Shown here in pieces: positions 3,502 to 54,399 of a stretch of DNA of 64,000 bases. Both the position numbers and the translations under genes were made by a program. The notes beneath the pieces were generated by a model. The model was not told the origin of the DNA. It saw only the letters and a list, made by a program, of their open reading frames with translations, and ran no database searches. Where the stretch lies: positions 576,001 through 640,000 of the forward strand of contig CP084166.1 in NCBI GenBank assembly GCA_021513695.1. Reading direction: 5' to 3'. Positions within the stretch are counted from its first letter, which is position 1. The number at the start of each line of letters is the position of its first letter. This DNA is from Candidatus Heimdallarchaeum aukensis. Lineage in GTDB: Archaea; Asgardarchaeota; Heimdallarchaeia; Heimdallarchaeales; Heimdallarchaeaceae.

Positions 3502-3645
3502 ATAACCACTTTATACATCTATTTTCTTGATAACTACTGTTTAAAACTTTACTAAAAATGTTTCAAAAGTTTCATGTAGTTATTAAATACTGAAATTTTA
3601 TTTTTTTGAATTTATTAGAAAAAATGAATATGTAAGAGAAATTAT

Positions 3646-4056
3646 TTATTTTCTATTGTATTTTTCTGTTAGCATTCTTTTTAACCACAAATTTAGGAAT
3701 GAATTTAGTGAATCTCTACTTTCAGTATCTACCATGCTTTTTGATGGATAAACAACACTAAACAAATACTGATCTTTATAAGATAAAACTTCTGCAATTT
3801 TTTTTAATGAATCTATACGAATTACTACCTCTGGGTCAGGAACCAAATCATCATTTTGTAAAAAATAGTGACCCATTGATAGTATCATCTCGCTTTCATC
3901 ACGAGATAAAATACTAATATGTAACTCCATCAAATTTCCAGAATACAAAATTAGTTTTTCTTCAATTTCTTCAACATTTGGAATTAATTTCATCAAGAGG
4001 TCATAGTTTTTATGAAAGATAGTTTCAATTGTTGTAATTATCTGTTTATCTGACAC
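3646..4056 (-). CDS. hypothetical protein (136 aa)
   Basis: ORF directly upstream (same strand) of the 444-aa unknown and downstream of hsdR; no motif recognised. Confidence 0.4.
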   Translation of the reverse strand: MSDKQIITTIETIFHKNYDLLMKLIPNVEEIEEKLILYSGNLMELHISILSRDESEMILSMGHYFLQNDDLVPDPEVVIRIDSLKKIAEVLSYKDQYLFSVVYPSKSMVDTESRDSLNSFLNLWLKRMLTEKYNRK

Positions 4057-7100: not shown

Positions 7101-7272
7101 TATGTAAAGCTGATTTTAGTCTATCTTTAAGAATAATCTCACTATATGATAACCTTTCAGGATTATTTCCTGTTGGTGCAATATCTGGACCAAACTTGGT
7201 ATCATAACCTAATTCTCTTAAAATTTCCATAGATGCTTCTTCTAACTCTTTTTCAGTTATTTTCATAATCAA
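4117..7272 (-). CDS. hsdR: type I restriction enzyme R subunit (SF2 helicase/endonuclease)
   Basis: Helicase motif I WHTQGSGKSLTM, motif II IADEAHRSHY (DEAH), motif III FTATP, motif VI QAIARVNRV; 1051 aa. Overlaps hsdS by 20 bp. Confidence 0.9.
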   Translation of the reverse strand: MIMKITEKELEEASMEILRELGYDTKFGPDIAPTGNNPERLSYSEIILKDRLKSALHKLNPDKPKEVLEDVLQKLNRIDSPDLLTNNRSFHRMLVDGVEVSYYHDGRVKGDIVRVIDFENPENNDFLAVNQFTVIEGVGSDKHNHRPDIVLFVNGIPLVVIELKNPSKEETTTRDAYNQIQTYKKEIPSLFRTNELIVISDGYESKAGSLSANWERFTPWRTIEGEILADQSILSLEVLFRGILEPSRFLDYIRFFITFEDDGRTIVKKSAAYHQYHAVNRAIKETLRATGSDGDQKIGVVWHTQGSGKSLTMLFYTAKLIQLLNNPTVVVITDRNDLDDQLFTTFTLSRDLLRQTSIQATARRYNPKNHEATKDNIEDLLKTTGGGVIFTTIQKFLPEENAQYPLLSERRNIIVIADEAHRSHYSFGKKLSEKGSLKEGFAAYIRQALPNASFIAFTATPVELVDRNTIHVFGNYISIYDISQAIRDKTTVPIYYESRLVKIKFNEELKGQIDEEFDEITEDEEEYAREKLKSKWSRVERLVSDPDRLREVAEDIVNHFEKRLEIIDGKGMIVCMSRRICALLYNEIIKLRPEWHSNDDQKGFIKVVISGSAADDQLLRSHIRPKRKRKIIENRMKDPEDELKLVIVRDMWLTGFNVPSMHTMYVDKPMQGHNLMQAIARVNRVYKDKPGGLIVDYIGIGYFLKQALSRYSNVESREQTAIPQEKAVELMKTYYEIVSDMFYNFDYSLFKTGSALQRLQLLPAAMEHILNLPNETPESAKKRFLDNLSALNKAFSLAIPHEEALAIRDDLAFFQAVRAGFVKATTPSKERKERVDYAIRQLISRAVISEDVIDIFSAAGLDKPEISILSDKFLEEVRGLKQKNLAVEVLNKLLKDQIRSRAKKNLVQSRSFEELLQKSINKYINRTIASAAILEELIQLAKDMQKAFKKGEELGLNDDEVAFYDALATNESAVREMGDETLKKIAKELVAKVRNSATIDFTVRKSVQARMRIEIRKLLRKYKYPPDQTPNAIKLIMEQAQLFGEEWATAV

Positions 7273-7960
7273 TTTCCGCCAAAAATTTTTCTATATTAGT
7301 AATTCGAAGCCTACCTGAGATAAGTTGAGGAAGTAGAATATCTCTTAATTTAATTAAAATATTAATTTCATCCTTATTTTTTCTAATTTTTTCAAAGATT
7401 GGGTCAATTATTTCTCTAAACTTTAGTAAAGTAGTCTTATCAGGTTTTATAATCGGAATCCTAAAAAGGTTACTTTGATTAATTTTTAATTGTACTGCAC
7501 CAGTTATATAAGGTCTAATGTTTATATTCATGAGATGTAACATAACAAATTCTGTACAAAATTCATTTTTTCCTTGTATTACATGAACATGATTATTCGC
7601 CCAAAATTTTCCATGTACATATTGTAAGATGGGTTTTTCATTGTTATCAATAACTGAACCATCTTCTGCCATTAAGAGAAAAATGCCATCAAAAATGTAA
7701 TCATCAATATAGTCTAAAATACTAGCTGCCCCATAATATGGATAAATACCTTTTCTTACCTTTCTTTCTATTTTTGATAAAGGAATTCTTTTTGAATCAT
7801 ATATACTTATGACTTCTTTGAGCGTCCCAACTTCCCATCCTTTTGGTATTTCTTTATCTACTTCCTCATTATATTCAAATTCGCCATCTTTGAAAGGTTC
7901 AAAATCAATAAACCAAGATCTGAAGATAGTTTGGGCTATCTCTTCTAAAACTTTGTTCAT
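7253..7960 (-). CDS. hsdS: type I RM specificity subunit, half-size (central conserved motif + one TRD + C-terminal conserved helix); probably 5'-truncated
   Basis: Begins with the HsdS central conserved block IFRSWFIDFEPF and ends with the C-terminal conserved LRDILLPQLISGRLRI. Only 235 aa versus about 400-450 for two-TRD HsdS. No hsdM upstream; an IS lies 130 bp away. Confidence 0.7.
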   Translation of the reverse strand: MNKVLEEIAQTIFRSWFIDFEPFKDGEFEYNEEVDKEIPKGWEVGTLKEVISIYDSKRIPLSKIERKVRKGIYPYYGAASILDYIDDYIFDGIFLLMAEDGSVIDNNEKPILQYVHGKFWANNHVHVIQGKNEFCTEFVMLHLMNINIRPYITGAVQLKINQSNLFRIPIIKPDKTTLLKFREIIDPIFEKIRKNKDEINILIKLRDILLPQLISGRLRITNIEKFLAEIDYENN

Positions 7961-8092: not shown

Positions 8093-8855
8093 GGTAGTGT
8101 CTAGTTTTCTTCCGACAAAAATATTTGTGGGGACTCTAATAGTAAGATATGAACATTCAAAAACTATCTACTCTTTTTAAGAGATGCAGAGTCCCCAAAA
8201 AAATAATAATAAAAGCTATTTATGAATATATTGGTTCAAAGAATGGGTTGAGGACAGTAGCATGGAAGAATGGTTTAACGCATCAAACATTATGGTATTG
8301 GGTAAAGAAGTTCAGGCTCTTTAGGGAAAGTTTACATAGAGTTGTAGCAGAGAGAGGGGGAATACCAGAGATTATAGTAGTAGATGAAACAGAGATTAGG
8401 ACCTCTCAAGGCTCAATATATCTGTGGTTCGCGTTAGATCCTTACAACAAGACTTTACTGGGTTTTAGTATTACTAAAGGACGGAGTAATCTTGAATGTT
8501 TACTAACTTTCCGTTATTGGCTCAAATGTTGGGGTTTTAAGCCTCGTATTGTCGTTACAGATGCAGGAGTATGGTATCCTGTCTTACTTCGTCTAGGTAT
8601 CAAAATCTCCGTTATCAAAGGTGGTTTACGCTCCTATATTGAACGTTTTAATGCTACTCTTAAGAGTTATCGTTGGTTTCATTCTATTCTCCACTGCACT
8701 TGTCCTATCCGTGCCGTCTATGGCTCTACTCATCTTTCTGGTTTTCTTACTCTCTTTATGCTCTATTATAATTTCGTTCGTCCTCATCAGAGCTTAGGAC
8801 ATCCTCCCCTTAGTTCCTTTTTACCTAGGAGGTGGTATAAAAACTAGACACTACC
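8093..8855 (+). mobile_element. IS6-family-like insertion sequence (~763 bp) with 16-bp terminal inverted repeats
   Basis: Left IR ggtagtgtctagtttt (8093..8108) and its perfect reverse complement aaaactagacactacc (8840..8855), flanking a single transposase ORF. No clear target-site duplication. Confidence 0.7.
8149..8847 (+). CDS. DDE transposase, IS6-like
   Basis: 232 aa. VVDETEIR...VVTDAG...RPHQSL blocks resemble IS6/IS26 Tnp (DETY...D...E spacing). The N-terminal 64 aa are repeated at 43001..43195. Confidence 0.75.
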   Translation: MNIQKLSTLFKRCRVPKKIIIKAIYEYIGSKNGLRTVAWKNGLTHQTLWYWVKKFRLFRESLHRVVAERGGIPEIIVVDETEIRTSQGSIYLWFALDPYNKTLLGFSITKGRSNLECLLTFRYWLKCWGFKPRIVVTDAGVWYPVLLRLGIKISVIKGGLRSYIERFNATLKSYRWFHSILHCTCPIRAVYGSTHLSGFLTLFMLYYNFVRPHQSLGHPPLSSFLPRRWYKN

Positions 8856-9122: not shown

Positions 9123-9524
9123 ATGCGTGGTGGAGGAAGAGGAAGAGGAGGAGGATTTGGATTAGGAGCAGGAGGAGCATGTATTTGTCCAGTGTGTGGT
9201 ACAAAAGCTGCTCATGCAAGAGGGGTACCTTGTTTTCAATCTCGATGCCCACAATGTGGAGCACCAATGACTAGAGCAGAAGCTTATGCCGGCCCCCAAC
9301 CACAGAATAGTAAAAACGTACAAGAAGAGAAAGAATACAAATTTGATACAGCAGCAAAACCGCATATAGACCAATCTAGATGTAAGGGGTGTGCTTTATG
9401 CATTAATAGTTGTCCTTTTAATGTTATTAGAATGGAAAATGGTCATGCAATTATTGATTCTTCACGCTGCAGAAGTTGCGGAGTATGTATTTCTTCTTGT
9501 CCTGAAGGGGCGATAGTTTATTAG
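9123..9524 (+). CDS. Gly/Arg-rich (RGG-like) N-terminus + 4-Cys zinc ribbon + 2x[4Fe-4S] ferredoxin domain protein
   Basis: MRGGGRGRGGGFGLGAGG, then CICPVCG...CPQCG, then two CxxCxxCxxxCP motifs (CKGCALCINSCP, CRSCGVCISSCP). Confidence 0.6.
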   Translation: MRGGGRGRGGGFGLGAGGACICPVCGTKAAHARGVPCFQSRCPQCGAPMTRAEAYAGPQPQNSKNVQEEKEYKFDTAAKPHIDQSRCKGCALCINSCPFNVIRMENGHAIIDSSRCRSCGVCISSCPEGAIVY

Positions 9525-9556: not shown

Positions 9557-9934
9557 TTATATTTTTAGTGGATCAATAATTATACTTTCTTTATCAAAAG
9601 TTGCCAAGTAAAAGTCTTCTGTTAAAGTGAGACAACCAGTTGGACAAATATCTTGACATAGTGCACAGAAGCAACATTTTCCTAAATCTATTTGTGGATA
9701 AGTTTTTGGGTATTTCTCTTTATATTCTTCTTTTACTTCTACCATCTTTATCGCTTTATTTAAACAAATTTTGGCACAAGATCCACAAGAGATGCAGTTA
9801 TCGATGTCAAACTTATGTTTTGCTCTCTCTCTTTCTGATATCTCTACTTTCTCCATTGGAAAAAGAACAGTCATTGGTCTTTTGAACAAATTCTTGAATA
9901 TTTCTGAAATAATACTTAGTTTCATTGTTATCAC
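9557..9934 (-). CDS. NuoI/EchF-like 2x[4Fe-4S] ferredoxin subunit
   Basis: CISCGSCAKIC and CCFCALCQDICP motifs; 125 aa; last gene of a B-C-D-I operon. Confidence 0.8.
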   Translation of the reverse strand: MITMKLSIISEIFKNLFKRPMTVLFPMEKVEISERERAKHKFDIDNCISCGSCAKICLNKAIKMVEVKEEYKEKYPKTYPQIDLGKCCFCALCQDICPTGCLTLTEDFYLATFDKESIIIDPLKI

Positions 9935-9935
9935 C

Positions 9936-11048
9936 TCATCTATCTACATCAGCAGGACATTGGTTTAAACTCCAATAAATAGCAGGGACGTCAGCATAAT
10001 AAGAATCAGTAAGTAAATGCTTTAAAATAGGTATCATGTGAGTAAAAGAAGGTCCTCTGATCTTAACTCTATAAGGAGTCTTTTTTCCTGTAGCAATCAT
10101 ATAAATAGCTCCTTCTCCTCTTGATAGTTCATTACGTGTATAGGTTTCTCCTTTAGCTTTGCGGAAGTGAACAATAGGTTTCATATTAGACGTTTTTACT
10201 TCCCCTTTTGGCATTCTGTCAATTGCTTGCTTAACTATCTTCTTGCTTTCTTCTATTTCTTGCATAGCTATCAAATATCTTGAATAAGCATCTCCTTCAT
10301 CAAAAACTGGAATTTCAAACTCCAATTCATCATAAATTTCATAAGGATCATCTCTTCTAACATCTGAAGCAACCCCGCTAGCCCTTAAAATAGGTCCTGT
10401 TGCACCTAGTTTAATAGCTTCTTCTTTCGTTAACACTCCTACTTCTTTGAATCTTTCCAACCATACAGGATTTTCTTTTTTTGCGAATTTATGCATATAG
10501 TCAATCTTTTCAAATAAAGTAAGAATCTTTTTTTCTGCTTTCTCTGGTAAATCTTTTCTTACTCCTCCAGGGCAGATATATCCAGCTGGATAAAGTCTTC
10601 CTCCAGTAATATAATCGAACACATCTAGCATATAGTCTCTGTATCCCATTGCAACATTAAATCCAGTAGTAAATCCTGTTCCCATTGACATTACAGCGTA
10701 CCATATAAAGTGCGATTGTATTCTTGACAGTTCTGCAAGTATAACTCTGATGTATTTAGCTCTTTCTGGGATATCATAACCCATTAAAGTATCAACAGCT
10801 TCTGCATGGAGAAGATTCCACTGAAGAGGTTCTAAAACACATATTCTATCTGATAATACAGAGTTTTGCATTGGTTCTCTATATTCCATTAACTTCTCAA
10901 AACCCCTATGTAAATATCCTGGATCAACTACAGCTTTCATCACTCTTTCTCCACGAAGCTGAACTCTCACTGAAAAGTTTCCTGAACCAGGGTGAGCTGG
11001 TCCAAAGTACATTTCAAAATCTCCTTGTCTTTCTTCTATTTCAGTCAT
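9936..11048 (-). CDS. NuoD / [NiFe]-hydrogenase large-subunit-like protein with degenerate Ni-Fe ligand motifs
   Basis: 370 aa. N-terminal RICVLE...W where hydrogenases have RxCGxCxxxH; C-terminal NQCPADVDR where hydrogenases have DPCxxCxxH. Only the first Cys of each pair is retained. Confidence 0.8.
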   Translation of the reverse strand: MTEIEERQGDFEMYFGPAHPGSGNFSVRVQLRGERVMKAVVDPGYLHRGFEKLMEYREPMQNSVLSDRICVLEPLQWNLLHAEAVDTLMGYDIPERAKYIRVILAELSRIQSHFIWYAVMSMGTGFTTGFNVAMGYRDYMLDVFDYITGGRLYPAGYICPGGVRKDLPEKAEKKILTLFEKIDYMHKFAKKENPVWLERFKEVGVLTKEEAIKLGATGPILRASGVASDVRRDDPYEIYDELEFEIPVFDEGDAYSRYLIAMQEIEESKKIVKQAIDRMPKGEVKTSNMKPIVHFRKAKGETYTRNELSRGEGAIYMIATGKKTPYRVKIRGPSFTHMIPILKHLLTDSYYADVPAIYWSLNQCPADVDR

Positions 11049-11593
11049 TTTTTCACCTCAAAATAAATATCTTCTCGGGGATTACTTTCATCATAATATT
11101 CTTGTTGTACATATTTTCGCCAGTCGAAGTCCTTTCTAAACGGAGGAGGGCCAGTCCAGTCTTCCAACATTAGTGGAGTAAGATTAACGTTTCCTTCAAA
11201 AATCACGCCATAAAACTCATGGCATTCTCTTTCACATAATTCTGCATTTTTACTCCATAGAGAAGTAACAGAAGATATTGTAGGATTTTCTCTATTTATC
11301 CTTGTTTTTATCGTTAAAAGCATTTTTTCTTTATAGGACCATAAATGGTAAGCAATTTCAAAATTATTCTTTTCAATCCAATCTGTAACACTTATTGTAG
11401 AAAGATGTTCAAAACCCATATCATAAGCAATCGAACAAGCATCTACTATTTCTTTAGGTTCAATAGATACCCAAAGTCTTTTTTTTCTTTGGATATTAAC
11501 CTTCTTGTTTAATTTCTTACTTAAAGCCGTTACAATTTTTTCTTCTTTATCCAAATTATTCTTCTCTTTCTCTACTACACTCATTTTACTCAC
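11045..11593 (-). CDS. NuoC (30 kDa subunit)-like protein
   Basis: 182 aa with the ...ECHEFYGVIFEGNVNLTPLMLEDWTGPPPFRKDFDW block typical of NuoC; 4-bp start/stop overlaps with neighbours. Confidence 0.8.
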   Translation of the reverse strand: MSKMSVVEKEKNNLDKEEKIVTALSKKLNKKVNIQRKKRLWVSIEPKEIVDACSIAYDMGFEHLSTISVTDWIEKNNFEIAYHLWSYKEKMLLTIKTRINRENPTISSVTSLWSKNAELCERECHEFYGVIFEGNVNLTPLMLEDWTGPPPFRKDFDWRKYVQQEYYDESNPREDIYFEVKK

Positions 11594-12030
11594 TCATCCG
11601 GCATTCCATGAACATGTTGAACTATTTTGAAAACAGCATCAAAAACAGCTTCAGGTCTGGGAGGACAACCAGGAATATACATGGTTACAGGAAGATAATC
11701 TTCAAGCTTCTTAACAGTGTTATATGAATCCCAATACATCCCACCTGTTATTGGACATGAACCCAATGCTAAGACAAACTTTGGATCAGGCATTTGCTCA
11801 TAAATCTTTTGTGCTCTCTTCATTGATTTTGGTGTCTGAAAACCAGCAATAAACAACACATCAGCCTTTCTTGGTGAATTAACTGTTATCATTCCAAAAC
11901 GTTCCATATCCCATCTTGAACCTACAACTGGAACAAGTTCAGTAAATCCACAAGAGTTAAACCAATTAAAAACCCAAATAGCTTTTACAAAATATTTCAT
12001 CACAGTTTTCTTCTTAACCATCCTTTCCAC
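11590..12030 (-). CDS. NuoB / hydrogenase small-subunit-like [4Fe-4S] protein
   Basis: Motifs GSCPITGG and IPGCPPRP present. The usual tandem CC motif reads SCGFTE, so one of four canonical Cys is missing. Confidence 0.8.
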   Translation of the reverse strand: MERMVKKKTVMKYFVKAIWVFNWFNSCGFTELVPVVGSRWDMERFGMITVNSPRKADVLFIAGFQTPKSMKRAQKIYEQMPDPKFVLALGSCPITGGMYWDSYNTVKKLEDYLPVTMYIPGCPPRPEAVFDAVFKIVQHVHGMPDE

Positions 12031-26355: not shown

Positions 26356-27426
26356 ATGATATGGCTTTCTTTATCTTATTCAATTTTTTCTTTAATAATT
26401 TTAACAATGTTTCTGATTGTTATTATTATAAAACAACTTGAACTTCGATGTACAGCAGTTTATTTTCTAATCATGATCATTGTATCTATTATTGGATGGA
26501 TAGTTGGAGATATGTTACAGATCATTTTTAGCAGCTTGGAAAATAAAGAATTGGTTCTCCTATTTTCACGAATAGCTACTATAAGTAGCATGATTGCAAT
26601 GATTAGCACAGTCTTATTTGCTAGAGTTCTAACTGCTCGTCAAACTTTGAATTCAACAATCGTAATTATTGCTTTCATGTTGTTTAGTGCTGTCGTTGCT
26701 CTCACTTTAAGTTCTAGTTATAAAGTAATTGATCCACCTAAAGATGTAGAATTTTACAAGACCGAAGCAGAACTCTTATGGGTAATTTTTGATGGAGTTT
26801 TGGTAATATTTGCTGGTTCTGTTTTCCTTTACTATCTTATTCGACAAAGAAAAATTGTACAAAAAAGATACTTACCTGTTTTAACTTTAATGAGCGTAGG
26901 AGTCATAATCGCTTTCTTTGTTAGCACTATCCTTTACACAATTTATGCGATATGGTTTATTGTTCCTTTATTACATTTAGAACTGGTAAGCGCTAGTTTA
27001 GGCGCAATAATAATAGGAATAGCAATGATCAAAGGAGGAAAAGAAGCAATTTACTATTCATCAAGAGTTTTCTCATTACATATTTTTGATGAAGTAGGAA
27101 TAAGCTATTATGCTAGTGTTTTTCAAGCAGGATATATAGTTGATGAGCAATTAATCTCAGGAGTAGCATCAGCTATTATAAGTTTTGCAAAAGAACTAAT
27201 CGGAAAAGAGGTTTTTCCACGAGAAATAGATCTTGACGATTACTCATTATTACTAGCTAAAAAAGACAATATAATTATTCTAATAAGCGTGGAATATCCT
27301 ACTGCACATCTAAGACAGACGATGAACAATATTATTGAAAAATTCAGTATGGATATGAGTGAAGAGGAAATAGGAAATCTTGTTGAAAACTATATATGCT
27401 TTGAACCAAGAAAACTAGTCCACTAA
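26356..27426 (+). CDS. polytopic membrane protein with C-terminal Roadblock/LC7 (MglB-like) domain
   Basis: About 8 TM helices. C-terminus ...GISYYASVFQ...LISGVASAIISFAKELIGKEV...DDYSLLLAKKDNIIILISVEYP fits the beta-alpha-beta-beta Roadblock pattern also seen in 46018.. and 57494.. Confidence 0.5.
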   Translation: MIWLSLSYSIFSLIILTMFLIVIIIKQLELRCTAVYFLIMIIVSIIGWIVGDMLQIIFSSLENKELVLLFSRIATISSMIAMISTVLFARVLTARQTLNSTIVIIAFMLFSAVVALTLSSSYKVIDPPKDVEFYKTEAELLWVIFDGVLVIFAGSVFLYYLIRQRKIVQKRYLPVLTLMSVGVIIAFFVSTILYTIYAIWFIVPLLHLELVSASLGAIIIGIAMIKGGKEAIYYSSRVFSLHIFDEVGISYYASVFQAGYIVDEQLISGVASAIISFAKELIGKEVFPREIDLDDYSLLLAKKDNIIILISVEYPTAHLRQTMNNIIEKFSMDMSEEEIGNLVENYICFEPRKLVH

Positions 27427-31974: not shown

Positions 31975-32547
31975 TTGAACTCCATGACAGAAAAACAGTT
32001 TATTTTCAAAATTGTACTTATTGGTGATGGCGCAGTAGGAAAAACTTCTATTAGAATGCAATATATGGGATACGGATTCAATACCAGTCATCTTATGACC
32101 CTGGGAGCAGATTTTTCATCTATTGATAAAGAAATTATTCCTAACGAAAAATGGAAATTTCAAATTTGGGATTTAGCAGGACAACAAATGTTTGAACAAG
32201 TTCGAGCTCGTTTTTACAAAGGAGCTCAGGGTGCCTTACTTGTCTTTGATATCACTCGCCCTTCCTCTTTTCAAAACCTTCCCATGTGGTTAAACGAATT
32301 GTATAAATTCAACGGATCAGGAGTTGTCCCTGTTGTAGTCCTTGCTAATAAGAGTGATTTGAGAGATAGAAAAAGTGTTAAATTCAAACATGTAGAAAAA
32401 TATGTTTCTGAATTAAATCTGCGTACCCAACGCTATGGTGTAACTAATTATTGTTTAGAAACAAGTGCCAAGACTGGATTAAACATCGATAGAGCTTTTG
32501 AAATTCTCGGGAGAAGCATTCGAGATAAATCAAGCAAAAAAACATAA
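31975..32547 (+). CDS. Rab/Ras-like small GTPase (canonical motifs)
   Basis: G1 GDGAVGKTS; switch I TLGADF; G3 WDLAGQ; G4 LANKSDL; G5 ETSAK. Confidence 0.8.
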   Translation: MNSMTEKQFIFKIVLIGDGAVGKTSIRMQYMGYGFNTSHLMTLGADFSSIDKEIIPNEKWKFQIWDLAGQQMFEQVRARFYKGAQGALLVFDITRPSSFQNLPMWLNELYKFNGSGVVPVVVLANKSDLRDRKSVKFKHVEKYVSELNLRTQRYGVTNYCLETSAKTGLNIDRAFEILGRSIRDKSSKKT

Positions 32548-32628
32548 TACCCAATACATTAATTTTTTATACTTTAAGTGATTCTTTTAAGTATATACTA
32601 ATAAACGAAAGATTCTGAGGAAAAACCA

Positions 32629-33195
32629 ATGCTCACATTTAAGATCCTTTTTATAGGCGATAATAGCGTAGGTAAAACTACTTTATTTAAAAAAATTGTT
32701 CAAAATGAAAAAAATAAAGAAAAGATCCCTTCTCTAAAAGCAGAAATAGTAAAAGTTTATCGTACAATCCAAGGAGAAGAAGTAGCTTTTGAACTATATG
32801 ATTTACCTGCGAGAGAACTTTTATCATCTCCTCAAAGAACAAAATGGTATTTAGGGACTGATGGAGCGTTTATAGTTTTTGACATTACAAAAGCAGAAAC
32901 GTTCAGAAGAGTAACATTCTGGCTAGAACAATTAATAAATTATAACAGAAAAGGGAAGATACCTATAGTATTAGTAGGTAATAAAATAGATATGAGAGAC
33001 AATCCTAATGTGAGAAATAGGACACTAAACCCTATAGATGCTCAAGCTTTCTGTCTTCGACTAAATCGTACATCAGCTAGAGAAGGAATTAATAATGAAT
33101 TCTTCGAAGTCTCAGCAATCTCAGGGAAAGGTTTAACTCAATTACTTGATGCATTAGCTAAAAATATTTATAACCATCACAAAAAAATAAAATAG
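32629..33195 (+). CDS. small GTPase paralogue with degenerate switch I/II (G3 = DLPARE)
   Basis: G1 GDNSVGKTT, G4 VGNKIDM and G5 SAISGKG are intact. Switch I reads SLKAEI and the DxxGQ motif is replaced by YDLPARE (no Gly, no catalytic Gln). Confidence 0.7.
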   Translation: MLTFKILFIGDNSVGKTTLFKKIVQNEKNKEKIPSLKAEIVKVYRTIQGEEVAFELYDLPARELLSSPQRTKWYLGTDGAFIVFDITKAETFRRVTFWLEQLINYNRKGKIPIVLVGNKIDMRDNPNVRNRTLNPIDAQAFCLRLNRTSAREGINNEFFEVSAISGKGLTQLLDALAKNIYNHHKKIK

Positions 33196-33227: not shown

Positions 33228-33773
33228 ATGTTTTTAGTCGCTCACATTGGATATACTTTATTAACTGCTGAAATACTCGCACACCTATATTATTGGTTGT
33301 TCTTAAAGAAAAAGAATTTGGAGCCTACAGATAGTTGGGGAATAGTTCATTTTGCTTTTCTACCCCTCATAATAGGTGCTCTTGGTCCAGACATTATTGA
33401 TAAATTAATTTCAGAACCTATAACAGGTTATGGCAGGTATATTGGACATTCTATTCCGTTCGCTATATTGATATTTATTTTATTTATAGCCATTTTTTGG
33501 AAGAAACCAACAGTTTATTCAGCTTTGATTCTTGGGTGGATAATGCACATCATTCTGGATACAGCAGGTTTTATTCCCTGGTTTTTCCCTTTTGTAGAAT
33601 ACAACTTTCAATCAAAAACTCAAACATATATTGAGCTTCTTTTTCAACCATATGTTTACAATAACGAAATTGGAGGATTCCTGTGCATACTTTTTCTCGC
33701 AGTTCTTTACTTTAGAAGAGGTTTTACTCTCAGATCTTTTATTCAACATATCTTTACTTTCTCTCCTAAATAA
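33228..33773 (+). CDS. DUF457-like membrane-bound metal-dependent hydrolase family protein
   Basis: Small polytopic protein with conserved His residues (MFLVAHIGY..., GHSIPF, MHIILDTAGF). Confidence 0.35.
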   Translation: MFLVAHIGYTLLTAEILAHLYYWLFLKKKNLEPTDSWGIVHFAFLPLIIGALGPDIIDKLISEPITGYGRYIGHSIPFAILIFILFIAIFWKKPTVYSALILGWIMHIILDTAGFIPWFFPFVEYNFQSKTQTYIELLFQPYVYNNEIGGFLCILFLAVLYFRRGFTLRSFIQHIFTFSPK

Positions 33774-33825: not shown

Positions 33826-35067
33826 TTGAGTATGAAATATTGCACAAAATGTGGAACAAAAACACCAGAAGATGCAGTTTTTTGTTATGTATGTGGAACA
33901 AAAATTGATGATCTATCTGTTGATTTACAAAAATCAACAAAGGACAAAGTAAGCGATCACAGACATTACTATCCTCACTCTTCACAACAAATAGATGATA
34001 AATACTACAAAGATTATACCCACAAAGAACACGTTTTTCTTAAAATCTTAGCTATTGTCTTTATAATTGGAATGATCACTGCTTCTATTTCTTTATTTGC
34101 TGTTTTCAGCTCTTTCAGAATGGATGTCATTGGTACTCAAAATTACTATTTAGAAGAAGCAAACTCTAATGAAGTTTTTCTAAATATTTACAACGGTATT
34201 GGAGACATAGACATTATCTTTACTGATGATACAGACATAATGGTCGAAATAAATGTAATCGTATTAGGCAGAAAAAATGTTGATGAGTCAGAATTTGCGG
34301 AATTTAAAATAAATGATTATGAGAAAAATCTTACCATTGAGTTTGATTCTGGAGAACAAATCTTTTCTTTCTTTAATAAGAAAATTCTTGAATATGATAT
34401 TAGCATTACTTTAAACTCTAAACTAGTTCTATATGCAGATGTTCAGATGGAAACGGGAGACTTTTACTTGGACATCAATTGCCAAACAGCTAATATAAAC
34501 AATTTAAATATTGTAACAAAGACAGGTGATGTTAGCATTTATGCATATTCCACGGAAAATGTAACAATCAACAACGTATATCTAGTTTCCACAACTGGAC
34601 AAATTCAGTTTAGTTTAAGTGATGAAGGAGCAAATTACATCAGCAATGTATTTGCAACCACAACCACAGGAAAAATATTTTTCGATTTTGGTAGGAATAG
34701 TATATACAATGGAAATGAAATAGAACTTACAACAACTACAGGAAAAATAGTCCTATACTGCACTAACATGCAATATTTAGAAAATGTTACTTGGTTAATT
34801 TCTACAAGTACAGGTTCGGTTTATGCAAATATCACTCAAGATTTTATCATTGAAAAACAATTACAAATTTCTTTCTTTATTACAGTTAATACTGGGTCAA
34901 TAGAAATTCTTGCTGAATTCCACGATGATATTGGTTACCTTTTCGAAGCAACAACTGATACTGGAACAATTACAATTCCTGAACAATCTCCAAATTATGA
35001 TACTGCTTTAAACAAGTATTATTTTTCCTTAAGCACTGACACTGGAAACATAATGGCAGAATTGTAA
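33826..35067 (+). CDS. zinc-ribbon - TM - DUF4097-like beta-repeat (putative adhesin-fold) protein
   Basis: CTKCGTK...CYVCGTKI at the N-terminus, one TM helix, then repeated TTTGKI / STSTGSV / TDTGTI beta-strand motifs. Confidence 0.5.
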   Translation: MSMKYCTKCGTKTPEDAVFCYVCGTKIDDLSVDLQKSTKDKVSDHRHYYPHSSQQIDDKYYKDYTHKEHVFLKILAIVFIIGMITASISLFAVFSSFRMDVIGTQNYYLEEANSNEVFLNIYNGIGDIDIIFTDDTDIMVEINVIVLGRKNVDESEFAEFKINDYEKNLTIEFDSGEQIFSFFNKKILEYDISITLNSKLVLYADVQMETGDFYLDINCQTANINNLNIVTKTGDVSIYAYSTENVTINNVYLVSTTGQIQFSLSDEGANYISNVFATTTTGKIFFDFGRNSIYNGNEIELTTTTGKIVLYCTNMQYLENVTWLISTSTGSVYANITQDFIIEKQLQISFFITVNTGSIEILAEFHDDIGYLFEATTDTGTITIPEQSPNYDTALNKYYFSLSTDTGNIMAEL

Positions 35068-43312: not shown

Positions 43313-45883
43313 ATGTCTTCTAAAGATAAAAAACAATCTTCAGAACTAGAAAAAGCGATATTAGAAGCAAAATCAAGATTACAAAAAGTTGTTTCAAAGA
43401 AAGAAGGAAAATATATAAGAAAAAACGAATTAGAAAATGCGATTAATGAAGCTATTAGGAGTTTAAAACCTGTTTCTGAAGAATTAATTAATAAAAAAAT
43501 GAAAAACAGTGCTTTTAAAGAAGAACTATTAAAAGCAAAGTCTGAACTAAAACAAGTAAAACAAGCAAAGAAGAGAGTAACAAAGAACGAAATGGAATTA
43601 GCTATTAAAGAGGCTATTAAAAATCTAAAACCAATAACTGAAAAAGGAAAAAAACAAATGACTTCAAAAGGAGAACTAGAATTAGCCATTTTAGACGCTT
43701 TTTCTAAACTCATAGAAGTTTCAGAAGAAGAGAAAAACTATGCATTAACTAAAAAAGAACTGGAAATAATAATAAGAGATGCAAAGAGTAAATTGAAAAA
43801 AGTGCCAGGAAAAGAACTTAGGCACGCATTATCTAAAAAAGAGATTGAGCACGAACTAAGAGACCTAAAAAGAAAATTAAAACCTGTTCCAGAACAAGTA
43901 AAAGTTCCAGAACTCTCAGTTAAACAACTTAGAACAGCAATTAAAGAAGCAAAAGTAAGATTAAAACCAGTTCCAGAGAATTTAAAAAGCATAAGTTCTA
44001 TCTCAGTGGGAAGATCAATCAAGAAAGAAGGAGAGAAAATAAAAAGGAAACTTCTTCCAATTCCAGGAGACGCAAAAACTTTTGAAATACAAAATATCGA
44101 ACATATTAAACTCTTTTCTGCAGAAAGATTGGATTTCAAGAAGTTCTTAATAAAACTAGAAAAACAGAAACAACAACCACTACTAAAAATAATAATCAAT
44201 CCAAAAACAAAGTTCTGTAAGATAGAATTAATGAACAAAGATAACCCCACTTCTCCATACAACATTACGGCGGGAGGAGATATTTTAGAATTCACATATA
44301 CTTATCGTTTCTTATTTAAACACGGTTACATAAAAATAGAGAATAACTACCCTCTACTCCTTTCAGATAAACAATGGATTGTGTGGTATCTGAGAGAAAA
44401 AATAGAATTAACTTTCGTGGATATAGCCTTTGCAATGGACGAAACAGTAAGAAACGTGAGAAACTTGTTCAATCAAGCAGAAAAAAGAATAAATCAAATA
44501 CTAGACTTCGTTGTAAATGAAGAGCATTACCAGCTAGTTGCAGCACATGCAATGAAAAGAAAAGGAGTAAGAATACAACAGATTGGAGATACAATAATAG
44601 AGCCAAAAATTACAGAAAAATATCTGATTGAACAACAACAACTAGAAGAGCTAACACATATTGAAGAACTTGAAAAGAAAGTAGAAATACCAAGAGAGTG
44701 GGTAATAAAAACAGCTTATAAAATAGAAACACTAAAGGGAGGATATTATCTGTGGAAAGAGTTTCTAGGAGCACTAAACAAAGATTCCCTGTTGATGATA
44801 GAGAACGACAGCTTACCCCACGAAGAAGAATACTTGATAAACGCAATAGGTTTAGGAGGAGAGATAATTCCTGACATCAAGAGCAACTTCAAAAAACTCA
44901 TAGACATATTCTCAGAAGCTCCAGATGAACTAGTAAAAATAGGAGATACAGCCTTTTTCATGGGTTATATGGATAACATTTATTCTAGCCAATTTTGGAA
45001 TATAAGAAACTTCGTTAAAGGAAACAGGAAAAATTGGAAAAAAGATTTCGTAAAAATAGCAATAAAAGCATATTCAAAAGCTCTAGAAAAAATTAACCCA
45101 GCAGTTTATCCTATAAAGTACGGAGTGCTAAAAAACGATTTAGGAGTGTTCTACTTTTTTCTATCAGAACTAGAGCAAACTAAAAAGAATACTCTAGAAG
45201 CAATCAAAAATATGCAAGAAGCAAAAAATGCATTACCTTTAGAATTCTTTAAAACAAAACATAGCGATATATGCTACAATTTAGGACTAGCCCACTTATT
45301 AATTTCAAAAATAGAAAACAAAGAAGAGAACATAAAACAGGCAATTCTAAATTTCAATTTTGCCCTACAAGGAAGAACATTAAGAATGTACCCTCTAAAA
45401 TACGCGATAACGGAAGTAAATCTAGGAATAGTCTACCAAAAACTGGCAGAAATAGAAGAAACGTCATTAAACTGCACACTAAGTATAGAATCTTATAACA
45501 ACGCTCTACGATCAAACACACTAGACATAATGCCCACAGAAGCAGCAATGATATACAACAACATAGGACTAGCTTATTGCACATTATCAAAAGAACAAGA
45601 AACAGAATACAATATTTCACAAGCATTAATAGTACTAAACGATGCTTTAACAATAAGAAATGAAGCACAGTTCCCAGTTGAATACGCAATAACAACAAGT
45701 ATTTTAGGAAAAGCTTACACAATTTTAGCTACAGTCAAAGAAACAAAAAAGAATTACGAAAAAGCTATATCTGCATTTAACAAAGCAATTAGAATATTTA
45801 TCAAGAAATACGAAGATTTCTATCAAGCTATAATTCATGAAAAGGAGAAAATTGAAGAAAAACTAATAGATATTTCACAATAG
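43313..45883 (+). CDS. large repeat protein: N-terminal ~9 Lys/Glu-rich 25-30-aa tandem repeats, central sigma-70-region-4/LuxR-like HTH, C-terminal TPR-like helical repeats
   Basis: Repeats ELEKAILEAKSRLQKV / ELENAINEAIRSLKPV / MELAIKEAIKNLKPI ... LRTAIKEAKVRLKPVPE. HTH candidate LSDKQWIVWYLREKIELTFVDIAFAMDETVRNVRNLFNQAEKRIN. Minus-strand ORFs here are shadows. Confidence 0.55.
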   Translation: MSSKDKKQSSELEKAILEAKSRLQKVVSKKEGKYIRKNELENAINEAIRSLKPVSEELINKKMKNSAFKEELLKAKSELKQVKQAKKRVTKNEMELAIKEAIKNLKPITEKGKKQMTSKGELELAILDAFSKLIEVSEEEKNYALTKKELEIIIRDAKSKLKKVPGKELRHALSKKEIEHELRDLKRKLKPVPEQVKVPELSVKQLRTAIKEAKVRLKPVPENLKSISSISVGRSIKKEGEKIKRKLLPIPGDAKTFEIQNIEHIKLFSAERLDFKKFLIKLEKQKQQPLLKIIINPKTKFCKIELMNKDNPTSPYNITAGGDILEFTYTYRFLFKHGYIKIENNYPLLLSDKQWIVWYLREKIELTFVDIAFAMDETVRNVRNLFNQAEKRINQILDFVVNEEHYQLVAAHAMKRKGVRIQQIGDTIIEPKITEKYLIEQQQLEELTHIEELEKKVEIPREWVIKTAYKIETLKGGYYLWKEFLGALNKDSLLMIENDSLPHEEEYLINAIGLGGEIIPDIKSNFKKLIDIFSEAPDELVKIGDTAFFMGYMDNIYSSQFWNIRNFVKGNRKNWKKDFVKIAIKAYSKALEKINPAVYPIKYGVLKNDLGVFYFFLSELEQTKKNTLEAIKNMQEAKNALPLEFFKTKHSDICYNLGLAHLLISKIENKEENIKQAILNFNFALQGRTLRMYPLKYAITEVNLGIVYQKLAEIEETSLNCTLSIESYNNALRSNTLDIMPTEAAMIYNNIGLAYCTLSKEQETEYNISQALIVLNDALTIRNEAQFPVEYAITTSILGKAYTILATVKETKKNYEKAISAFNKAIRIFIKKYEDFYQAIIHEKEKIEEKLIDISQ

Positions 45884-46017: not shown

Positions 46018-48018
46018 ATGAAAAGTTTTTTACCTAAATTTCTGCTTAATGAAATCGATCTTTATTTAGATGATTCTCAGAAGTCTATTTTTGAAGAGAA
46101 GGTTAAAAGTATTGTAAGTAATGCTTCTGACTATGATACGATTTCCAAGGACATTACTGCCTTTCTTTTGAATGAAGATTTTACTGATTTAACGACTTAT
46201 GATCAAATGCTTATTCTTGTTTCAATTCTTCTAAATTACTGGAAAAAGGATTATTCTCTTATTTTTAGCATCTATGACAAATTTCATTCTTTTGATTTAC
46301 CTCTTAGCGTTATGATTTGTTTTCTTCTATTTTTTCAAGAATCTTTTGATTTAACCACTTTTAACCTTTGGAGAGAGAAGATAGAAGAGTACATTACAAA
46401 CATTTCTGATTCTACTGAAAAAGAATTTCTTAAAACTGCTATTGAGCAATTTGCTTCTAAGCTTGAGCAAAGGCCTGAGGTTGGTTATCGTTCTATGAAT
46501 CAGCTTATTCGTTCTCTTGAGGAGAATGAGCATATTTCTTATCGATATCCTTTTGTTTTCGAGGCTTTAGAGATTGATCTTATTCAGTACTCTAACATTT
46601 TAGCTGATGAAGTTTTTTCTGAAATCTGGATTGAGTCCGCTAGAAGAAGAGCTGAAGTTATGGAAAACTATGGCATGTTAGTTCAAGTTAACAGCCTTCT
46701 TGCTAGTATTTTAGTTAAAGAGTATCATCTTGAAAAAGCTAAAGAGAAAATTGAGGAGGGGTTAGAGATTGCTAAGAGGATCAATTCTCCTATTTTAGCT
46801 GCTCAAATTGAGTTGAACAAGGCCTTGTTATTGAAGATGCAAGGTAAGTTGGACGAAGCTTTGAAGTTATATGAAAAAATTGCTAAAGTTAAGAATCTTC
46901 CTCAAACTTTTCAATTGGATATTTACAGTAAAATAGGTGAAATTTATCTCAACAAGGACGAGATAGTTAAAGCTGAAGAATACTACCTTAAAGCTCACGA
47001 GATTAATAAGAAACTTAATTTTATCAATCCTCTTGTTGAAATAGTTATAGGTTACATTAACCTGATTTTAGAGAAAGATAAGGGGGAAGCTTTAGATGAG
47101 GGGTTGAAGATTGCTGAAGAACAGTTTGATTTTTCTTCTATTCCTTACTACTACTTCTACAAAGGTATTTATGAGCAACAAAGGGTTAACTTATCCTTAT
47201 CTATTGAATACCTTGAACAAGCTTTGAACTCTTTTGAGCACCAAAAGAACTTTGAGGGTATTGTTTATACTAACGGTGCATTGGCAGAGTCTTATCTTCA
47301 GATTTACAAGCTTCTTCACGATAACAAATATTCTTCTCGGTTCCTCTATTATATTGACAATCTTATTGAAATACTAAAGGAGTTAAACAATCCTTTGTAT
47401 GTTGAAGCAATAAAGACTAAAGCAGGTTACTATTTAGATAAAGGTTTAATTAAAAATGCTGAAGATCTGTTTATTGATGGAATAGAATTTGCTAGGACAC
47501 GAGGATTAAAAGAGGAAGAAATATATCTTAAGGAATCGCTTACTAACAAGAAGAATTTAACAAAAATAACTTTAGAAGGTACTCAAATACTCTTTAGAAA
47601 AATAAGGATGTTCAGCTTTGGTAAGCATAAAACTGTTCCCACCAAATTATACTTACTTTTAGCCATTAATGAAGCTGGAATTCCTTTAGTTTCTCACTCT
47701 TTTACTGAAGAAGAGATGGTAGATGATCTTTTAGTTTCAGGGTTAATTTCAGCTATAATTAATTTCTCTTCTGAAGTTCTAGGAAAAGGAGGAGAAACCT
47801 TACGATCAATAAATCATGAGGGCAAAGCTGTTATAGTAGAGAAAAAGGACAATGTGATGGGTATCTTAGTTGCTGAAGATGAGAATTTCGAGATGAGACT
47901 GGAACTTAGACAGTTTTTGCAGAAAGCGCTTGATAAGTTAGTTTCTGGACTTCCTATTGTCAGAGAAAACGACAGTGAGATTTTTTCTATTATAGAAGAA
48001 GTTTTTGAGAGAAAATAA
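46018..48018 (+). CDS. TPR-repeat protein with C-terminal Roadblock/LC7 (MglB-like) domain
   Basis: Multiple TPR-like helices in residues 200-520. C-terminal LLLAINEAGIPLVSHSF...LVSGLISAIINFSSEVLG...EGKAVIVEKKDNVMGILVAED matches the Roadblock beta-alpha-beta-beta-alpha layout. Confidence 0.6.
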   Translation: MKSFLPKFLLNEIDLYLDDSQKSIFEEKVKSIVSNASDYDTISKDITAFLLNEDFTDLTTYDQMLILVSILLNYWKKDYSLIFSIYDKFHSFDLPLSVMICFLLFFQESFDLTTFNLWREKIEEYITNISDSTEKEFLKTAIEQFASKLEQRPEVGYRSMNQLIRSLEENEHISYRYPFVFEALEIDLIQYSNILADEVFSEIWIESARRRAEVMENYGMLVQVNSLLASILVKEYHLEKAKEKIEEGLEIAKRINSPILAAQIELNKALLLKMQGKLDEALKLYEKIAKVKNLPQTFQLDIYSKIGEIYLNKDEIVKAEEYYLKAHEINKKLNFINPLVEIVIGYINLILEKDKGEALDEGLKIAEEQFDFSSIPYYYFYKGIYEQQRVNLSLSIEYLEQALNSFEHQKNFEGIVYTNGALAESYLQIYKLLHDNKYSSRFLYYIDNLIEILKELNNPLYVEAIKTKAGYYLDKGLIKNAEDLFIDGIEFARTRGLKEEEIYLKESLTNKKNLTKITLEGTQILFRKIRMFSFGKHKTVPTKLYLLLAINEAGIPLVSHSFTEEEMVDDLLVSGLISAIINFSSEVLGKGGETLRSINHEGKAVIVEKKDNVMGILVAEDENFEMRLELRQFLQKALDKLVSGLPIVRENDSEIFSIIEEVFERK

Positions 48019-52182: not shown

Positions 52183-54399
52183 TTACCCTAATACTAGTTC
52201 TTTTTCTGGTTTTGACTTCTGTTTAGTCTTTTTTGTATCTATTGTTTTTTTCTCTATTTCTGTATCTTTTTTCTTAACTATATCATCTTTCTGTTGATCT
52301 AGGGATGTTTCTACTTTCTCTTTCTTTTCTTTAATATACTTAGCTTCTTCTACACTTACTTCTTCTGTCTCTTTTGTATCATTTTGTTGTTTTTTCTCTT
52401 TGATTTCTTCTTTAGAAGGAACAACTTTTTTTGAAATCCTCTCTTTTCTAGTATCTTTTGCTTCTTGTCTCGTTTCTTTTTTTACCTTTGTCATTATTTT
52501 AGGTTCTGACTTTTGTTCTTTCTCTTTTTCTAGTTCTTCAACTATTTTAATTTGCATTTCTTTTTTGACTCTTTCATATAAATTGACTGACCAAGGTAAA
52601 TTCTCTTGAATTGAAATATTAGAGAGAGAACGAAGAATCTCTATAACAAATTTTTTCTGTGTTTCCTTGTTACTTGAAAGCTTGTTATATGCATTTGACA
52701 AAATAGAATAAACTTTTTCTTCCTCAGTGTAAAGAAACAACATATTTCTGATTACTGTTGAAAGATCTCTATTTTTCTCAAATTGGAAAATGTTCTTGCA
52801 TATTATATCTTCAAATACTTTTTTAAGGGTAGAATCATTTTTTTCTACTGTTTTTAGATCAAAACAAGTTTGAATACTTTCAATAGTTAAGTTTTGTAAA
52901 GAGTTAGAAATGAAACCCTTTTTTTGATTTAATGTTGTGATTACTCCATTTAGGAAGTTTGTGCTCAAGGTTTCTGCGCAAATAGATAACAGTTCATTTT
53001 TTTGATTAGTAAAAACTAATTCACTCTTTAGATTTTGTAAAATGACTACAACTTCTTCTACATCAAAGTCTCCTGAAATCTTGTTTTTTATTGATTCCTC
53101 TGAAAAGAATACTGAATAATAATAGAATTTTTCACTTAACTCTGATAACGTAGGATCTTTACTTTTATTCATATCTTTTATATTCATTGAAAGTGCAACT
53201 AACAACCCTCGAATAATTTTTTCAAAATCTCTTTTTTCTTCTTCTTTTGAAACTTGGAGTTTAAATAACATTATAATTAGTTTATTGATTTGTAAAAGAA
53301 CTAGTTCTTTTTCTTTTAATGTTAAATCTGATAACTCGGTATCTATTGCAATTACTGATTTATCTAATAAAAAGTTTAGATTTTCTCTTGTCTTTGAATT
53401 AAGTTTGCTTTCTTTACCTAAAGCATGAAAATAAGCAAAAGTGCTAATAGCAAATAAATTAATTCTCTCTTCTAGTCTATTTAAAAAAACTTCAAAGTTT
53501 CTAACTATTTTATCTAATTTTTCTTCAGGTTTATCTTGCTGCTCTAAACCTATTTTAAAGCTATTTAGGTAGTCTATTGAACATTTTGAAGAAAAGATGT
53601 ACAATATTGTTGGATAAAAAGTTAGATATTCAAGGAGCTCTTTCTTAATCAAATTAATGTCAAAGAAATAGTTAGATGCTCCCATTAAAAGTGCAAAATC
53701 AGTAAGAAATTGTGCTTTCTCAATAGGTAAAAATTTTAACAAATCGTTTTCTAAATACTCAAATCGAATGAGTTTTCTTCCGCAAGAAGGGCAAGACTCT
53801 TCATTAACTATTTTTTGTCCACATATTGAGCATAAAACAGTCTTTTTTCTTATTTGTATTCCACATTGATTACAATAATTGCTGTCAGGGTGATTAGAAG
53901 AATCACAGTTTAAACATTTAACAACCTTAAAAGAAGGTTTTTCTTTTCTTTCAAAGTATTCTTCTTTTTGTTCTTGTTCGATACTTGTCTCTTTCTGGTG
54001 AATGTCAAATTTTAAACCACAATATTTACAAAAACGAGCGTTTGGAGGATTAACAGTTTGACAGTTTGAACAAATCAAAATGTTTGGTTCACTTTTTTTC
54101 TCTGTAAATCTTGCACCACATTGGGTACAAAATTTTGCATCAATTTTTTGCATAGATCTACAAAAAGGACAAGCTTTTGTCTGTGAGCTACTTTTATTTT
54201 TCTTGTTTCTTTCATTAGCAAAGTTGTATCCACATTTAGAACAAAACAGAGCTTCATTTCGAACATATTTCTGACAAACAGGACATTGTTTAAGAAGTGT
54301 ATATTCAGTAGGAGTATCGATTTTATTTCCACAGTGAGTACAATAAGAAACTTCTTTTTTATTCAGAAGACCACATCTATTGCACATCTTTTGTATCAT
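52183..54399 (-). CDS. protein with six tandem N-terminal zinc ribbons, central helical domain and K/E-rich C-terminal tail
   Basis: CNRCG..CTHCG, CPVCQ..CSKCG, CPFCR..CTQCG, CSNCQ..CKYCG, CLNCD..CNQCG, CSICG..CPSCG. Confidence 0.6.
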   Translation of the reverse strand: MIQKMCNRCGLLNKKEVSYCTHCGNKIDTPTEYTLLKQCPVCQKYVRNEALFCSKCGYNFANERNKKNKSSSQTKACPFCRSMQKIDAKFCTQCGARFTEKKSEPNILICSNCQTVNPPNARFCKYCGLKFDIHQKETSIEQEQKEEYFERKEKPSFKVVKCLNCDSSNHPDSNYCNQCGIQIRKKTVLCSICGQKIVNEESCPSCGRKLIRFEYLENDLLKFLPIEKAQFLTDFALLMGASNYFFDINLIKKELLEYLTFYPTILYIFSSKCSIDYLNSFKIGLEQQDKPEEKLDKIVRNFEVFLNRLEERINLFAISTFAYFHALGKESKLNSKTRENLNFLLDKSVIAIDTELSDLTLKEKELVLLQINKLIIMLFKLQVSKEEEKRDFEKIIRGLLVALSMNIKDMNKSKDPTLSELSEKFYYYSVFFSEESIKNKISGDFDVEEVVVILQNLKSELVFTNQKNELLSICAETLSTNFLNGVITTLNQKKGFISNSLQNLTIESIQTCFDLKTVEKNDSTLKKVFEDIICKNIFQFEKNRDLSTVIRNMLFLYTEEEKVYSILSNAYNKLSSNKETQKKFVIEILRSLSNISIQENLPWSVNLYERVKKEMQIKIVEELEKEKEQKSEPKIMTKVKKETRQEAKDTRKERISKKVVPSKEEIKEKKQQNDTKETEEVSVEEAKYIKEKKEKVETSLDQQKDDIVKKKDTEIEKKTIDTKKTKQKSKPEKELVLG

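Follow-up and report, generated by a model that had tools for sequence, protein, structure and literature searches.

A conserved pair of Rab-like GTPase genes in Heimdallarchaeaceae, one of them with degenerate switch and catalytic residues

Introduction

Two adjoining genes in a 64,000-nucleotide stretch of the genome of Candidatus Heimdallarchaeum aukensis (contig CP084166.1, positions 576,001 to 640,000 of the forward strand; this whole stretch is called the window here, and coordinates count from its first nucleotide) code for small GTPases that are named G1 and G2, a usage separate from that of the G1-G5 motifs, which are the GTPase boxes. G1 is Rab-like and canonical in its motifs. G2, also Rab-like and a paralogue, has a GTPase fold in which several switch and catalytic residues have been replaced, and is read as a functional protein maintained by selection. 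It represents a new family, defined in Heimdallarchaeaceae, strongly selected and paired with one Rab-like orthogroup, often together with a YdjM-family gene; no published description of this family was found in the literature. G2 is probably unable to hydrolyse GTP or to switch conformation, and its purifying selection and constant pairing with G1 make a regulatory or pseudoGTPase-type partner a reasonable reading of its sequence. It is tentatively proposed that G2 is a nucleotide-bound, non-switching and fixed partner of a cycling G1, and that it would work at the membrane.

The two GTPases

The closed genome of Candidatus Heimdallarchaeum aukensis was described by Wu et al. 2022 (PMC8813620), and the G+C content of the window is about 30%. 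G1 (31984..32547, + strand) codes for 187 amino acids (aa) from an ATG, which is the start used by public gene calls and in the orthologue alignments; an alternative in-frame TTG at 31975, where the mechanically defined open reading frame (ORF) begins, would give a protein of 190 aa. After a spacer of 81 nucleotides (nt; 32548..32628, + strand) it is followed by G2 (32629..33195, UJG41324.1), of 188 aa, on the same + strand and in the same reading frame. The Pfam Ras profile (PF00071, cut-off 21.6 bits) matches both proteins over its positions 1-161 of 162, with 137.3 bits for G1 and 91.3 bits for G2, which confirms the tandem GTPase pair that a first-pass annotation had described here, and the Asgard-type setting that it had proposed agrees with the host being a Heimdallarchaeum. 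The database labels of both proteins are generic (G1 is 100% identical to a Ca. Heimdallarchaeum aukensis protein annotated as 'GTP-binding protein'), the only NCBIfam match is the generic 'small_GTP' domain, and no other small GTPase is encoded within the window.

All five GTPase motifs can be read directly in G1 (GDGAVGKT, MTLGADF, WDLAGQ, NKSD and SAK) and the best matching solved structures are Rab8A (E 6e-32) and the Thorarchaeota Rab 7EZB (E 9e-31), with further matches to Rab2, Rab10, Rab7 and Rab1, so its earlier description as canonical and Rab-like is well founded. The segments LGADF, KFQIWDLAGQQ, FYKGA and LVFDIT resemble RabF1, F2, F4 and F5, RabF3 being divergent, and the Pfam profile Gtr1_RagA gives 30.7 bits only. 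The C-terminus of G1 is polybasic. A C-terminal Cys prenylation motif is present neither in G1 (...RDKSSKKT) nor in G2 (...NHHKKIK), and G1, as a single-domain Rab-like protein without prenylation Cys, is in this respect similar to other Asgard Rab-like GTPases (7EZB; PMC10933270). Orthologues of G1 that share 60% identity or more occur widely in Heimdallarchaeaceae, and its ratio of nonsynonymous to synonymous substitution rates (dN/dS) is 0.025 and 0.022 versus close relatives.

G2 keeps the P-loop (GDNSVGKT, residues 10-17, 32656..32679), the G4 motif NKID (residues 118-121, 32980..32991) and the G5 motif SAI (residues 162-164, 33112..33120), all on the + strand and all as previously noted, together with the Asp of G3 (Asp58, which is Asp57 in Ras). 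The G1, G4 and G5 boxes are thus intact, and the G2 box (Thr to Ser) and the Gly of G3 (to Ala) are not. Because the G1, G4 and G5 motifs are kept, G2 is predicted to bind nucleotide, a prediction that draws on the intact Lys and Thr of the P-loop, on NKxD and SA, and on the G3 Asp. In an alignment with RabA1a, Ser35 (32731..32733, + strand) falls at the position of the switch-I Thr35, Lys37 at that of the Gly and Glu39 at that of the acidic residue, and in switch II, which contains the altered G3 motif DLPARE (residues 58-63, 32800..32817, + strand), Ala61 replaces the Gly of DxxG (Gly60 in Ras) and Arg62 the catalytic Gln (Gln61 in Ras). Of the switch-I Thr, Gly and Asp and the switch-II Gly and Gln that G2 had been said to have lost, both glycines and the glutamine are indeed gone, the replacement of Thr by Ser is conservative, and an acidic residue is still found at the Asp position. 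Alignments to Rab structures and to G1 also place a Lys at the equivalent of Phe28 and an Asn at that of Gly12, and the RabF1 and RabF2 positions read SLKAEI and ELYDLPARE, away from the consensus.

The P-loop GTPase fold on which the first reading of G2 depended was recovered in an AlphaFold2 model (predicted local distance difference test, pLDDT, 91.6; predicted template modelling score, pTM, 0.89) obtained from an alignment of 53 sequences. The sole weak block of the model, at residues 61-70, is switch II, the region of the DLPARE motif. A Foldseek comparison with the PDB retrieved Rab10, Rab32, Rab2, Rab7, Rab11, Ran and K/N-Ras with TM-scores of 0.7-0.8, the Q61R and Q61K structures of NRAS being among the matches. 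In addition, residues 30-33 form in the model a short extra beta-strand before beta2, in switch I, which recalls the GDP-type conformations of Arf and Ran. Two other assignments of G2 were considered and ruled out, Rag, given that there is no Gtr1_RagA match, and SRbeta, the SRPRB profile remaining below threshold (23.2 bits versus 25).

Distribution, variation and selection of the G2 family

A word-indexed search of 5.8 billion proteins returned only four clusters of G2 orthologues, with 98-50% identity, all four containing YDLPARE or YDFPRRE, and when 1.84 billion representatives were scanned exhaustively with HMMER, two single-domain clusters were all that came up from the family, followed by generic GTPases. 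By running a family-specific DNA pattern (LNPIDA...RLNR) on metagenomes, and by context look-ups, about 15 distinct full-length G2 sequences were gathered. The named members are all annotated as Heimdallarchaeaceae or Heimdallarchaeum; the family is small and seen only in Heimdallarchaeaceae. After the two family clusters, the G2 profile matches most strongly a set of eukaryotic gene models in which 2-6 Rab-like domains stand in tandem. Several of these models carry DxxGRE, and they probably are tandem arrays merged by gene prediction; P0129, P0130 (Blattella germanica PSN49720.1) and P0156, multi-Rab models of this kind from cockroach, bivalve and diplonemid, were discarded as irrelevant.

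The G3 motif of the family is variable, being DLPARE in the clade of the window and DFPRRE, DLPAGE, DIPAKE, DIPGRE or DIPGKE in others. The position of Gln61 is occupied by Arg or Lys in all lineages but one (L007, with DLPAGE), the Gly of DxxG has been lost in some lineages only, and most members have Ser at the switch-I Thr position, where Ala is found in L003, L004 and L045. In the P-loop G10, G15 and K16 are invariant, as are N, K and D of the G4 motif, and for the G5 motif the window clade has S-A, like most members, several lineages having S-S and L045 S-T. The motifs DxPxxE, LNPIDA and RLNR are invariant and specific to the family, and the conservation of D58, P60 and E63 throughout it indicates that switch II is under a new constraint and not drifting. 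The ORF is intact in every lineage and dN/dS is 0.034 and 0.045 versus close relatives, so that G2 is under strong purifying selection; in deep comparisons its amino-acid change (dN) is about 1.5-2 times higher than that of G1.

Pairing with G1 and genomic neighbourhood

In all of the 15 distinct lineages with upstream DNA, the gene directly 5' of G2 is an orthologue of G1 in the same orientation, and the spacers measure roughly 48-206 nt. This pairing holds where synonymous sites are saturated (dS >1.5) and where the identity of G1 is down to 60%. The more distant homologues of G1 that were checked (P0057 and P0067, with 55-57% identity) are solitary and found in unrelated contexts, indicating that the pairing defines the orthogroup. 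Such a conserved pairing of a canonical and a degenerate Rab-like gene is not described in Tran et al. 2024 (PMC10933270). Across the family the two genes belong to a syntenic block, composed of H+-pyrophosphatase, major facilitator superfamily (MFS) transporter, G1, G2, YdjM (when present), class-V aminotransferase and P-type ATPase genes. A TATATA box and a GAGG sequence, about 35 nt and about 8 nt upstream of the G2 ATG, are conserved in an alignment of the spacer of the window with four orthologous ones, and G2 and YdjM may be transcribed from a separate promoter. As to the origin of the pair, a tandem duplication is unsupported: the extended alpha4 insertion common to G1 and G2 is also found in other Heimdall Rab-like proteins, and a neighbour-joining (NJ) tree does not join them.

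In the window, G2 is followed at 32 nt by a gene (33228..33773, + strand) for a polytopic membrane protein of the YdjM family (PF04307, 46.6 bits versus a cut-off of 29), which NCBI labels as 'metal-dependent hydrolase' and which has invariant residues at H6, E15, D55, D58, K59, R70, H74, S75 and H107. This gene is present in about half of the G2 lineages. It lies 3' of G2 in the window and in L003, L004, L006, L007, L022, L029, L030, L042 and L045, and is absent from that place in L009, L010, L027, L041, L043 and L046, where the class-V aminotransferase gene is directly next. The measured spacers between G2 and YdjM are of 12-120 nt, and the two genes are probably co-transcribed. The papers found on the YdjM family were uninformative as to its function.

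Some further observations concern this gene. In L003, a metagenome-assembled genome of Heimdallarchaeaceae, a YdjM-like gene is tandemly duplicated 3' of G2 (2690-3253 and 3344-3889). The loss of the DxxG Gly in G2 is always accompanied by retention of YdjM (window, L003, L004, L006, L007 and L045); the clade without YdjM (L009, L010, L027, L041, L043 and L046) keeps the Gly, and L030 keeps both, a correlation that may reduce to one or two evolutionary events. Directly 3' of YdjM, and present only in the closest relatives, the window has a gene (33826-35067, + strand) for a protein with one zinc ribbon, a transmembrane (TM) helix and a beta-rich repeat domain.

Possible roles of G2

Five substitutions in G2 (Gln to Arg, DxxG Gly to Ala, Thr to Ser, Phe28 to Lys and Gly12 to Asn) point to a protein that no longer hydrolyses GTP or switches conformation. 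In Ras, Q61R and Q61K are classical alleles that abolish hydrolysis, and the loss of the aromatic Phe28 in Ras F28L speeds nucleotide exchange. H-Ras T35S and G60A have been found mostly in state 1, that is, GTP-bound with disengaged switches, their effector affinity lost and their GTPase activity drastically impaired (PMC4867591). By analogy with H-Ras T35S, G60A and Q61R, G2 would sit nucleotide-bound in an open 'state-1-like' conformation, its most likely state being nucleotide-bound, probably GTP-bound, non-hydrolysing and non-switching. G1 alone would cycle, with G2 acting as its non-cycling scaffold or regulator, and the pair would act at the membrane, together with the YdjM-family protein in about half of the lineages. 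This fixed-partner role is favoured because G2 is strictly co-inherited with G1.

Several observations weigh against it. In about half of the lineages G2 still has DxPG and a Ser in switch I, and these orthologues, many of them with DIPGRE or DIPGKE, might still switch, in which case 'non-switching' would perhaps apply only to some lineages, that of the window included. A non-canonical G3 was found in 119 of 350 related GTPase domains, sporadic DxxARE and DxxGRE among them, and small GTPases number in the dozens in Asgard genomes (74 in MK-D1; PMC10933270), so that a degenerate paralogue is unsurprising per se. In the NJ tree of archaeal and metagenomic relatives, G1 and G2 do not group together (3% bootstrap). 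The whole block being syntenic, their adjacency could partly reflect slow rearrangement within one family. Finally, the spacer has an oligo-T run right after the G1 stop which, with the conserved TATATA box, suggests separate transcription units.

Part of this evidence could also be accommodated if G2 were an independent atypical GTPase, constitutively loaded with GTP in the manner of Rnd and RhoH, signalling by itself and controlled by the level of its expression and not by a GTPase cycle, its adjacency to G1 being historical. The same motif evidence applies to this alternative, and the TATA-like element 5' of G2, which suggests its own promoter, the synteny of the entire neighbourhood and the separate positions of G1 and G2 in the NJ tree are all in line with it. 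It is considered unlikely, if still worth keeping in mind, given that the pairing is preserved in 15 of 15 lineages at dS >1.5, with G1 identity down to 60%, and that the YdjM and zinc-ribbon neighbours come and go over the same range.

The conserved basic residue at the Gln61 position raises another alternative, rather unlikely, namely that G2 is still active through a non-canonical catalysis, in which this Arg or Lys would act in cis or the residues needed would be supplied by a GTPase-activating protein (GAP), as RapGAP does for Rap and TBC GAPs for Rabs. Besides the presence of Arg or Lys in nearly the whole family, the strong purifying selection on switch II residues and the DxPG and switch-I Ser of about half of the lineages are compatible with catalysis, which would be easier to accept in the DIPG[RK]E lineages than in the G2 of the window. 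Against it, the DxxG Gly is lost in the window clade and the switch-I hydroxyl in the three lineages with Ala, Ras Q61R and Q61K are GTPase-defective and G60A and T35S are state-1 proteins (PMC4867591 for state 1), and no candidate GAP is linked to the locus.

The fixed-partner proposal can be extended into a more specific model, which must be regarded as speculative and improbable, where G1 and G2, as bare G domains, would make up an obligate and asymmetric heterodimer, G2, as a permanently nucleotide-loaded pseudo-Rab, gating or localising the cycling G1, and where this heterodimer would dock on the YdjM membrane metal-dependent hydrolase, when present, and regulate it.

The longin/roadblock-like proteins of the window

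The first-pass annotation had also counted three Roadblock-domain proteins in the window and suggested that the whole locus could be a GTPase-Roadblock signalling module. The proteins in question are a multi-TM protein (26356-27426, + strand) and two tetratricopeptide repeat (TPR) proteins (46018-48018, + strand; 57494-59419, - strand), which have in common a C-terminal domain of about 120-140 aa. These are not standalone Roadblock proteins, and their shared domain looks longin-like. The isolated domains gave no match to Pfam Robl_LC7 (PF03259) even at E up to 10, and two of the three matched Fuz_longin_1 below threshold (14.9 and 17.7 bits versus 26.1; E 0.004 and 0.03), the third not matching it. 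Scanning the window's small ORFs, and its large ones without annotation, against Pfam revealed no standalone Roadblock genes. An AlphaFold2 model of the domain of 46018-48018, with a moderate pLDDT of 67, has the longin topology bb-a-bbb-a-a and matches AP sigma, Fuzzy, TRAPP and Mon1/Ccz1 in Foldseek, as well as zeta-COP, with MglB, the Roadblock2 of MK-D1 and LAMTOR somewhat lower; the matches to AP sigma, Fuzzy, TRAPP, Mon1/Ccz1, MglB and Roadblock2 have a probability of 1.0 and TM-scores of about 0.55-0.65. The other two domains were assigned to the longin/roadblock superfold by alignment to the modelled one. Homologues of these proteins are few and unannotated.

Longin and roadblock folds are classical regulators of GTPases (PMC10933270), and the TPR-longin and multi-TM-longin proteins may be Heimdall-specific candidate GTPase regulators. 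A module in which they would serve as GAPs or partners of G1 and G2, similar to MglA-MglB or Rag-Ragulator, has in its favour the superfold of the 46018-48018 domain and its matches, which include MglB, Roadblock2, LAMTOR, Mon1/Ccz1 and TRAPP. It is nevertheless very improbable, and at the level of the locus largely refuted, the domains being below Pfam thresholds and their genes lying 5, 13 and 25 kb from G1 and G2, with unrelated genes between. A hidden Markov model of the domain detected no copy in the flanks of any orthologous G1/G2 locus, G1 and G2 lack both the C-terminal domain of Rags and the motifs of MglA, and small-GTPase genes of MK-D1 are generally not in operons with roadblock or longin genes (Tran et al. 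2024, PMC10933270).

The possibility that G2 is a decaying duplicate, a pseudogene in progress, as the loss of several canonical motif residues and its higher dN in deep comparisons might suggest, is excluded by its intact ORF in every lineage, a dN/dS of 0.03-0.05, a confidently predicted fold and the invariant motifs of the family.

Comparison with known systems

Among Asgard Rab-like GTPases, G2 has Rab, Ran and Ras as its nearest relatives by sequence and fold, although it has none of the catalytic Gln, the switch-I Thr and the DxxG Gly of that group and departs from the consensus of RabF1 and RabF2. The G2 of the window naturally carries equivalents of the three substitutions T35S, G60A and Q61R/K of H-Ras and N-Ras; the latter, however, are single changes, engineered or oncogenic, in a switch that works, whereas G2 has an evolved and conserved combination, accompanied by the losses of Phe28 and Gly12 and by the DxPxxE motif.

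With respect to pseudo- and atypical GTPases (Rnd, RhoH, CENP-M, the pG domains of p190RhoGAP and the psGD of AAGAB), G2 shares with them a GTPase fold that has lost catalytic residues and is under selection, presumably retained as an interaction module (PMC12490416, PMC5593906). Of the features that define a pseudoGTPase, the two that sequence and model can show, a GTPase fold and the loss of catalytic G-motif residues, are found in G2; the third, a lack of GTP hydrolysis with or without nucleotide binding, is biochemical and is predicted for it. Unlike class i pseudoGTPases such as AAGAB, G2 keeps the G1, G4 and G5 motifs and is a predicted nucleotide binder, and it differs from the whole group in being archaeal and encoded beside a canonical paralogue.

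Rag/Gtr heterodimers and MglA had been proposed as conceptual parallels for the pair, and neither holds. Two paralogous small GTPases are the theme shared with Rag/Gtr, in which they form an obligate pair, and MK-D1 has an operonic pair of Rag-like GTPases predicted by AlphaFold2 to be a heterodimer (PMC10933270). However, Rags dimerise via C-terminal roadblock domains and both subunits hydrolyse GTP, whereas G1 and G2, with 187 and 188 aa, are bare G domains without such a C-terminal domain. In the MglA-MglB system, too, the G3 of a Ras-like GTPase from prokaryotes is altered, and a Roadblock protein regulates this GTPase. In MglA, Thr replaces the Asp of G3, and Gly and Gln are kept; G2, in contrast, keeps Asp58 and loses Gly and Gln, and its neighbours are G1 and YdjM, with no adjacent mglB or Roadblock gene.

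Other features of the window

The window contains several other loci. The R subunit of a Type I restriction system, HsdR (1050 aa), is encoded beside a single-domain HsdS fragment of 234 aa (4117-7960, - strand), and no HsdM was seen near them, which suggests a disrupted restriction-modification locus; a 232-aa ORF that follows (8149-8847, + strand) has no Pfam match and looks transposase-like by eye. NuoB-, NuoC- and NuoD-like subunits and a 2x[4Fe-4S] protein (9557-12030, - strand) resemble group-4 [NiFe]-hydrogenase or complex I, and this module adjoins a gene for a ferredoxin with a Gly/Arg-rich N-terminus (9123-9524, + strand). An 856-aa protein (43313-45883, + strand) starts with about seven degenerate K-E-L-E-x-A-I-x-E-A-x-x-x-L-K-P-V repeats, which are followed by a TPR-containing C-terminal region. 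At 52183-54399 (- strand) there is a protein with six or more zinc ribbons that has a Lys/Glu-rich tail, and at 59680-63624 (+ strand) one of 1314 aa in which FG-GAP repeats, an extended series of calcium-binding TSP3 repeats of bacterial type and a TM helix are combined with a Cys-rich C-terminus of zinc-ribbon or RING-like type.

Significance

Few known archaea are as closely related to eukaryotes as Heimdallarchaeia, whose large repertoires of small GTPases are central to ideas on the origin of membrane trafficking. Matching Asgard GTPases to their partners is hard, because those of MK-D1 are generally not in operons with regulators (PMC10933270). The G1/G2 locus provides one concrete and conserved pairing, that of a canonical Rab-like protein with a 'T35S/G60A/Q61R-like' paralogue, often together with a membrane protein. 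If G2 were merely an atypical GTPase, one defined family would still be added to the catalogue. If it were the partner of G1, loaded with nucleotide and unable to switch, then Rab-like proteins would have been under regulation of the pseudoGTPase type before eukaryotes arose. And if the heterodimer with its membrane enzyme were to exist, an archaeal pair of an active and an inactive GTPase would control a membrane enzyme, a possible prokaryotic precedent for the paired-GTPase logic of eukaryotic membrane trafficking.

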